DNA of 64,000 nt, from sequence record KX452698. One strand, written 5' to 3'. Made by a program: the position numbers and the translations under genes. This document shows positions 10,619 to 11,010 of this stretch, in pieces. The DNA is from Shigella phage KNP5. A model generated the notes under the pieces. It worked only from the letters and a program-made list of their open reading frames with translations. It did not search any database and was not told the origin of the DNA. Numbering within the stretch: position 1 is the stretch's first letter; every line of letters starts with the position of its first letter.

Positions 10619-10680
10619 ATAGGGTAATAGTATCACAACTAAAACCCTATGTAAACAACTTTGTGAAATTATTTTAAATC
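10619..10680 (-). repeat. promoter-hairpin repeat copy A (PeSL-like early promoter plus stem-loop)
   Basis: 32-nt identical core atgtaaacaactttgtgaaattattttaaatc shared with 10979-11010, plus 7-bp hairpin atagggt/accctat. Confidence 0.7.
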
Positions 10681-10926
10681 TTCTAATCGTTTCTTCATCT
10701 TAGAACCATTTTTAGCAATTTCTCCTGCATCGGAGCATAATGCTAAAAGTGCTTTAACTTTAGTTTGGTCTCCTTTAAAAGATGAAGGATCGACTGCAGC
10801 AGCAAGTTCTTTAATACGAGAGAAAAGACGCTCAGCTTCAGCTAAAGCCATTCCAAGCTTTACTTCCATACCGTGAGAAGATTCAGTGATAGTGGTTTTT
10901 GTAGCAAACTCTTTGAAAGTTTTCAT
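10669..10926 (-). CDS. small IP-like protein at the ipI locus (putative capsid-targeted)
   Basis: 85 aa; begins MKTFKEFATKTTITE↓ (CTS-like with I-x-E site); sits immediately downstream of 57B, where T4 carries ipI. Confidence 0.55.
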   Translation of the reverse strand: MKTFKEFATKTTITESSHGMEVKLGMALAEAERLFSRIKELAAAVDPSSFKGDQTKVKALLALCSDAGEIAKNGSKMKKRLEDLK

Positions 10927-10946
10927 TTTATTTTCCTAATTAATTT

Positions 10947-11010
10947 TGATGAGATAATAGTATCACTACCTCATCAGCATGTAAACAACTTTGTGAAATT
11001 ATTTTAAATC
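10947..11010 (-). repeat. promoter-hairpin repeat copy B (PeSL-like)
   Basis: same 32-nt core; 7-bp hairpin tgatgag/ctcatca with a different stem sequence but a similar loop (taatagtatcac). Confidence 0.7.

Follow-up and report, generated by a model that had tools for sequence, protein, structure and literature searches.

Early promoters with overlaid stem-loops flank an internal-protein gene cassette in Shigella phage KNP5

Phage DNA is injected into the host together with internal proteins (Ip), some of which disarm host defences. Here, we describe two repeated modules, each an early promoter with an overlaid stem-loop, that bracket an internal-protein gene at the ipI locus in a stretch of 64,000 nucleotides of Shigella phage KNP5 (sequence record KX452698; hereafter the window). 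All genes and modules described lie on the minus strand, on which gene 1 (12421-11696) is followed by 57A, 57B, an open reading frame (ORF) of 85 amino acids, a membrane ORF of 61 amino acids, homologues of tRNA.3 and tRNA.2, and the tRNA cluster. The conserved left flank, 57B (10999-11454), belongs to the Acb1 family (Pfam PF23474, E 3e-60). The cassette gene (10669-10926) encodes the 85-residue Ip5-type internal head protein (PHROG 3499, E 1e-49), which is labelled Ip5 or ipV in the records of PP01, RB14, RB32 and PST and starts with the capsid-targeting leader MKTFKEFATKTTITE (MKTFKEF...ITE). The conserved right flank is tRNA.4 (10413-10598), the 61-residue membrane protein, assigned from its ORF, a match to PHROG 1692 and the annotation of relatives.

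The two modules form a 69-nucleotide direct repeat with 83% identity: module B (10946-11014) lies between 57B and Ip5, and module A (10616-10684) between Ip5 and tRNA.4. As noted in the initial annotation, which was made from the letters of the window alone, they share an identical core of 32 nucleotides, GATTTAAAATAATTTCACAAAGTTGTTTACAT. This core occurs exactly twice in the window, at 10979-11010 and, as an exact match, at 10649-10680, as compared to zero copies expected from shuffled sequence. Each copy reads GAT TTA AAA TAA, an A/T-rich stretch, GTTTAC, a spacer of 18 nucleotides and TGA-TACTAT. In module B, the core comprises the DLK-stop codons, the A/T-rich upstream element and GTTTACAT, and the module as a whole includes, besides the 57B stop codon and the A/T-rich upstream element, the -35 and -10 elements and the stem-loop. 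Motif and consensus scans place early promoter B at 10957-10986 (-35 GTTTAC at 10986-10981; -10 TACTAT at 10962-10957, preceded by TGA) and early promoter A at 10627-10656 (-35 at 10656-10651; -10 at 10632-10627). In both modules, GTTTAC-N18-TACTAT with a TGn extension and A/T-rich sequence upstream corresponds to the T4 early promoter pattern.

The last codons of both 57B (10999-11010) and Ip5 (10669-10680) are GAT TTA AAA TAA (DLK-stop) and belong to the repeat; T4 ipI lacks this ending. As the 5′ edge of the repeat is thus coding sequence, a recombination event at this edge would give the upstream protein a changed C-terminus.

Each promoter is overlaid by a perfect stem of 7 bp, the 5′ arm being placed in the promoter spacer and the 3′ arm between the -10 element and about +3. 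Stem A (ATAGGGT/ACCCTAT) pairs 10650-10644 with 10625-10619, and stem B (TGATGAG/CTCATCA) pairs 10976-10970 with 10953-10947. The sequence GTGATACTATTA, which represents the extended -10 element TGnTACTAT, is present in both loops. Stem B is longer than initially described, with 10 pairs including one G.T, and in the RNA fold stem-loop B (10947-10976) comprises 13 pairs including G.U, the 7 outer ones perfect (UGAUGAGGUAGUG / loop AUAC / UAUUAUCUCAUCA). The T4 counterpart of stem B is a perfect helix of 10 bp (TGATGAGGTA/TACCTCATCA). Stem-loop A (10619-10650) folds as AUAGGGU..UAGU / loop / ACUA..ACCCUAU, with 7 + 4 pairs and a 2x2 internal loop. The RNA folds reach -14.8 kcal/mol for copy B (z -4.45) and -13.7 kcal/mol for copy A (z -3.8), in either case with none of 200 shuffles as good; the corresponding DNA folds reach -5.4 and -5.5 kcal/mol. 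The initial annotation had regarded the differences between the two stems as compensatory changes, a claim that did not survive closer alignment. The 3′ arms are homologous, with differences at 2 positions, and the 5′ arms are offset by four to six nucleotides. With the first base of the -10 element as the reference, the registers of the two stems are i+j = 1 and, for copy A, -5. They are two different helices built on almost one 3′ arm, and they are not column-wise compensatory.

Whether such hairpins exceed chance was assessed on 43 loci, namely the window, 6 GenBank phages and 36 IMG/VR contigs found via 57B. A scan of IMG/VR with a loop-plus-3′-arm pattern gave 13 stretches, and the 57B-anchored search yielded far more. 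The 43 loci hold 75 promoter modules, 56 of them unique, which fall into 24 clusters at 81% identity. With the TGn and -10 positions fixed and the remainder shuffled, 16 of the 24 cluster representatives beat 95% of their shuffles (p<0.05; mean z -3.0). Moreover, we combined left promoter halves with right halves taken from other promoters in 5000 derangements, a null that controls for composition and for the conserved promoter positions. True pairs folded at a mean of -11.5 kcal/mol as compared to -6.5 kcal/mol for swapped pairs, a value that 0 of the 5000 derangements attained (p<1/5000). Likewise, 36 clusters of early-promoter motifs from 126 kb of the T4 genome yielded -11.0 versus -6.4 kcal/mol (p<1/5000), and 18 of 39 motif matches in T4 were individually significant in the shuffle test (mean z -2.7). 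This excess of pairing across the T4 genome indicates that the architecture is general to T-even early promoters and not peculiar to the ipI locus. Thus, the hairpins at these promoters are not a product of chance. A search of positions 1-13000 with the Rfam covariance models (E<=0.1) returned tRNAs and weak chance matches only, none of them at the modules.

Within the window, a search for GTTTAC-N18-TAnnnT gave 6 matches where 0.7 were expected, and a hairpin is present at 5 of 7 credible early promoters. In line with the initial annotation, the same architecture recurs upstream of denV (2407-2446) with an 8-bp stem around the -10 element (AACTGTGA/TCACAGTT; RNA fold -22.9 kcal/mol, z -4.5), and upstream of the ORF at the e.7 position (6451-6487) with a perfect 9-bp stem (TAGGCTCAT/ATGAGCCTA) that extends to 12 pairs in the RNA fold (-17.0 kcal/mol, z -3.1). 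For the short folds of both, 0 of 200 shuffles were as good. At denV, an outer helix (module 2385-2450) forms between UUUCUUC of the spacer and the Shine-Dalgarno sequence GGAGGGA and encloses the AUG; RNA that reads through from gene e would be closed to translation. A further early promoter (59165-59194) has a spacer that pairs with the Shine-Dalgarno region downstream of it (-22.0 kcal/mol, z -5.8).

Runs of at least 6 Watson-Crick pairs, with registers counted from the first base of the -10 element, are concentrated in a few registers. Register i+j = 1 holds 9 clusters as compared to 0.3 expected, registers -5/-4 hold 6 as compared to 0.4, and registers 10-12, in which the spacer is paired to the downstream gene's Shine-Dalgarno sequence, hold 8 as compared to about 1. 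A single consensus structure for all modules was considered and rejected, given that at least three registers are in use. Covariation was followed in an ungapped alignment of 28 distinct, orthologous promoters upstream of tRNA.4. For the register-1 helix, 62.5% of the cells were paired, as compared to 30-49% when the partners were slid; 22 cells showed double changes as compared to 9.3 in shuffles, and 0 of 500 shuffles reached 22. The exchanges include G-C to A-U and U-A to C-G. True compensatory changes occur only among these orthologues, where the covariance that the initial annotation had proposed to look for is indeed found for this helix.

The mismatches are strand-biased. Single mismatches within the best helices are G.T/T.G in 14 cases and A.C/C.A in 1, where the base composition predicts roughly 1:1; counted by helix, the split is 11 G.T versus 1 A.C. 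This asymmetry indicates that it is the sense strand that folds. Pairing through G.U in chimeric modules and the weaker folds obtained for DNA (-4 to -6 kcal/mol) point the same way, and the simplest reading is a structure of RNA, formed in read-through transcripts. As far as could be found, neither the 14:1 bias nor the fixed registers (i+j = 1, -5) have been reported before. Shuffling, partner swapping, the double changes at tRNA.4 and the G.T bias together argue that the hairpin is selected, as initially suggested, though at the level of the whole family and not from the two window copies alone. A protein operator, i.e. an inverted repeat around the -10 element, was rejected as well, because the arm sequences are unrelated between promoters.

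The modules also mark where related genomes diverge. The window is close to the Escherichia phage KNP1 (99.9% identity over the stretch) and the Shigella phage pSs-1 (98.6%), and RB32, PST, T6, PP01 and RB14 are 96-98% identical to it. Aligned with T4, it is near-identical throughout 57B, module B, the ribosome-binding site, the ATG and some eight codons of the leader. Thereafter the sequences are unrelated (Ip5 versus ipI), and identity is back at the base after the Ip stop codon (ATTTCACAAAGTTGTTTAC...), continuing into tRNA.4. Cassette boundaries and modules thus coincide in this alignment, as the initial annotation had anticipated. Across the 43 loci, 0 to 5 leader-bearing Ip genes lie between 57B and tRNA.4, which, together with the leader and the PHROG 3499 match, bears out that the repeats bracket a gene with a capsid-targeting sequence at a hypervariable locus. 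Ip5 alone is found in the window, PP01, pSs-1 and KNP1, ipI alone in T4, Ip5-ipI in RB14, Ip5-Ip6 in PST and Ip5-Ip9-Ip7 in RB32; more distant relatives carry up to five Ip genes in the array. Directly upstream of this array lies 57B with its Pfam match to Acb1, an anti-CBASS nuclease, so that two kinds of anti-defence genes stand side by side.

Chimeric modules point to the sites of exchange. With left and right module halves denoted by letters, the RB14 array is 57B-[X|X']-Ip5-[Y|X']-ipI-[Y|Y']-tRNA.4, exactly as would be expected if a window-type module A and a T4-type module B had undergone unequal crossover in their common GTGATACTATTA loop. Mixed left and right halves are also present in T4_ev240, RB32, PST and several IMG/VR contigs. 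In the mixed Y|X' modules of RB14 and L044, G.U pairing preserves a helix of 7 bp (ATGGGGT with ATCTCAT); the view that Y|X' junctions are broken hairpins was rejected after folding, and the Z|X' junctions alone are truly unstructured. In addition, L036:4173-4260 (IMG/VR 2706796299) carries a tandem duplication of the -10 element and 3′ arm (GATACTATTACCTCATCAA GATACTATTACCTCATCAA), which looks like the result of slipped or unequal exchange within a module. Judged from these alignments, the modules are both the edges of the cassettes and the apparent sites of crossover, in keeping with the earlier proposal that they act as recombination points for cassette shuffling. The module, the ribosome-binding site and the first approximately eight leader codons would be repeated on either side of every internal-protein gene. 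As the repeats flank every Ip gene, they supply 40-100 bp of homology, which the general recombination of the phage would use to insert, delete or exchange Ip cassettes. In this way the modules would explain why close T-even phages carry differing sets of internal-protein genes at one locus, a variation that matters for host range and phage therapy.

We consider it likely that the modules are intergenic elements typical of T-even phages, each a strong T4 early promoter with an overlaid stem-loop, that the stem-loop acts as a hairpin of read-through RNA, and that the repeats provide the homology for exchange of Ip cassettes. Based on a distance of 7 nucleotides from the -10 element, transcription is predicted to start at approximately 10950 in module B and 10620 in module A; module B would drive Ip5, and module A would drive tRNA.4. 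Since these predicted start sites lie inside the 3′ arms, transcripts from the own promoter would be devoid of the hairpin, and read-through RNA from upstream alone would fold. In such RNA, the hairpin would mark the boundary between cistrons. Hairpins A and B end 8-9 nucleotides short of the Shine-Dalgarno sequence, which makes a role in closing the ribosome-binding site impossible at the ipI locus; the site would remain free under both hairpins, which most likely serve as a partial attenuator and/or as a protective 3′ end after cleavage. Conversely, where the helix reaches the Shine-Dalgarno sequence, as for denV in the window and ipII in T4, translation would proceed from own-promoter transcripts only.

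Approximately one third of the T4 early-promoter hairpins form between the promoter spacer and the downstream gene's Shine-Dalgarno sequence (examples, L057-L059, at T4 coordinates 8218, 53943, 62797, 65413, 123093, 136336 and 166807). Given this pairing, translation of many T4 early genes would be restricted to transcripts from their own promoters.

Several observations weigh against this interpretation. The predicted start sites derive from promoter geometry. The 24 clusters, although separated at 81% identity, may still share ancestry, and the cluster counts are not fully independent. The register -5 helix, that of copy A, received weak covariation support on a mixed alignment; the modules' use of at least three registers accounts for this weakness. 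The early promoters at 5929 and 6825, 2 of the 7 in the window, are without a significant hairpin, and the same holds for the recombinant junctions RB32 module 3 and L044 module 2. The hairpin thus appears dispensable at least in some places. A classical terminator role is not supported, since no T-run follows hairpin A or B (tails CAAAATTAATTAGG and CAACTACCGAGG), and a terminator scan of the window called 7545-7522 and 6984-6965 as true terminators and neither of the two hairpins. Finally, the late promoter motif nearest to Ip5 on its upstream side is located in gene 1, and none lies directly before the gene. Late expression of Ip5 must therefore pass hairpin B, which limits how strongly the hairpin can attenuate.

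The modules and their role in shuffling are already known; they were described in 1994 and generalised between 2010 and 2014. Repoila, Tetart, Bouet and Krisch (EMBO J 1994) reportedly found that repeats of approximately 70 bp flank the internal-protein ORFs of T-even phages, and are said to have proposed shuffling. The modules in the window resemble these repeats in their locus (ipI, from 57B to the tRNA region, one of the two polymorphic Ip loci), in their size (69 nucleotides here), in the Ip leader of approximately 11 amino acids and in the early promoter with an overlapping stem-loop on both sides of the Ip ORFs. There is no essential difference, the window representing the one-cassette (Ip5-only) configuration. 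The GenBank record of RB32 already carries the note 'flanked by 43 bp direct repeat'. In their passages on the Ip loci, PMC2839356 and PMC4122927 cite Repoila 1994 for these elements. According to PMC2839356 (Arbiol 2010), the T-even Ip elements build on T4 early promoters, have stem-loops that are weaker and AT-rich, and probably account for the plasticity of the Ip loci.

The elements of PST and T4 known as PeSLs (promoter-early stem-loops; Comeau, Arbiol, Krisch 2014; PMC4122927) follow the consensus TTTACW-N17-TAYWAT with variable stems, to which TTTACA-N17-TACTAT of the window conforms. Further shared features are the variable stem-loop, the AT-rich sequence upstream, a 3′ end with the Shine-Dalgarno sequence and ATG, and the placement in hyperplastic regions beside indels; PST has the very modules of the window. 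On the minus strand, the order is that of a PeSL, namely an upstream stop codon in an AT-rich region, the -35 and -10 elements, the stem-loop, the Shine-Dalgarno sequence and the start codon. The association of PeSLs with insertions, deletions or replacements among close relatives is seen here as Ip5 versus ipI with breakpoints at the module edges, and in RB14, RB32, PST and T4_ev240 as tandem arrays and chimeric modules. All in all, every testable defining feature of the Repoila repeats and of the PeSLs is present in the window modules. The window therefore adds one more example and no new principle; what is added are the genome-wide non-randomness, the preferred registers, the wobble bias of the sense strand in favour of a role in RNA, and explicit chimeric junctions.

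The PeSLs of RB49 and phi1 (PMC2839356) are similar in that a promoter and stem-loop lie between small genes, the stems being located between or over the -35 and -10 elements, and in that neighbouring copies recombine with junctions in the loop or the AT-rich region. They differ in their near-consensus sigma-70 boxes and stems of G-runs and C-runs, and PMC2839356 regards them and the T-even Ip elements as analogues, not homologues. The crossovers of the RB49 mini-circles were mapped to the loop and also to the AT-rich region, according to the sections of PMC2839356 and PMC4122927 that deal with them; mini-circles are not known from T-even Ip cassettes. In T4, promoters inside sequestering hairpins (e, soc, 49, I-TevI-III) give rise to translatable transcripts, and longer RNAs are closed (PMC2330249). 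The promoter within the hairpin and own transcripts without the 5′ arm are shared by the denV module and many T4 early promoters. However, e, soc, 49 and I-TevI-III have late or middle promoters and a stem that extends over both the Shine-Dalgarno sequence and the AUG. Integron attC arrays are likewise composed of small, promoter-proximal gene cassettes with imperfect inverted repeats, in which structure is kept over sequence and one strand is favoured. In contrast, the window locus is without an integrase or a conserved core site, each Ip cassette has its own promoter, and general homologous recombination explains the exchange. We found no tyrosine-recombinase integrase among the ORFs of positions 1-12500 or in family searches and no attC-type R/L core sites, the stems sharing no core beyond the promoter boxes.

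Among the alternatives, the one that retains most credit, while still unlikely, is that the stem-loops are transcription terminators that isolate each cassette, as the elements of PST and T4, termed promoter-terminator motifs (PMC4122927), have been understood. The hairpins are stable as RNA, and an RB49 PeSL stem-loop placed between promoter and lacZ cut expression (PMC2839356). However, neither hairpin has the make-up of a rho-independent terminator: the A/U-rich stems contain 3-4 G-C pairs each, the tails read CAAAAUUAAUU and CAACUACCGAG, and the missing T-run and the silence of the terminator scan, mentioned above, speak against termination as well. Moreover, T-even elements have weaker and more AT-rich stem-loops, as PMC2839356 states where it treats them, and late expression of Ip5 seems to need read-through from the late motif in gene 1. 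The window modules would thus allow for attenuation at most, in contrast to the terminator label of the PeSLs.

A bolder and rather doubtful extension would see in the stem-loops a genome-wide device of the early regions of T-even phages, acting on the sense strand, that tells read-through RNA from own-promoter RNA, does not terminate transcription, and, as one and the same folded strand, may also guide crossovers into the loop at the Ip loci. If true, the Ip array would be an integrase-free analogue of the integron cassette array, and the 14:1 bias and fixed registers would be the first quantitative support for a device that senses read-through.

Less probable again, and quite improbable overall, is that the hairpins act as DNA, either as an attC-like single-stranded or cruciform guide for crossovers or as a modulator of promoter opening. 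Such a role would suit the crossovers between the two arms in several chimeric modules and the junction of an RB49 mini-circle that was mapped to the loop (PMC2839356); besides, G.T is the least destabilising mismatch in DNA, so that the strand bias could reflect folding of the non-template strand. However, DNA folds of -4 to -6 kcal/mol with loops of 4-16 nucleotides are poorly suited for cruciform extrusion, no integrase-like gene lies near the locus, and the loop is the longest stretch common to all modules, which means that ordinary homology explains crossovers there. Moreover, the pairing with the Shine-Dalgarno sequence in approximately one third of the T4 hairpins is sensible in RNA only. 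Lastly, the notion of ordinary early promoters with functionless inverted repeats, arisen by chance or templated by quasi-palindromes, deserves hardly any credence: it would fit the two window promoters, about half of the T4 motif matches and some recombinant junctions that have no significant hairpin, but the shuffle and partner-swap tests exclude chance, orthologous promoters keep their pairing through different sequences and double changes, and a 14:1 ratio of G.T to A.C is not expected from strand-neutral templated mutation.

Some further observations concern the surroundings of the modules. The window contains two runs of N, at 9416-9514 (99 bases) and 46815-47804 (990 bases), which represent masked or unresolved sequence; the former breaks ORFs on the tRNA.2 side. 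Gene e lies directly upstream of denV in the window; in T4, ipII and ipIII sit between the two. Following denV after a gap of 9 nucleotides, an internal virion protein of 157 amino acids (1492-1965; PHROG 3155, DUF7412, leader MKTYQEFITE) is encoded without an early promoter module, and a late motif, TATAAATA, is located in the end of denV (2000-2007). The same late motif lies upstream (7508-7515) of another ORF of 157 amino acids on the minus strand (6994-7467; MKSYAQFLNE..., PHROG 2280, unknown function). An intrinsic terminator, repeated directly over 36 nucleotides (92%), brackets this ORF at 6954-6989 and 7513-7548. Of 695 matching phage records, 448 contain the ORF, which is missing from T4 and T6. 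It is a second kind of repeat-bracketed cassette, in which terminator repeats take the place of promoter repeats.

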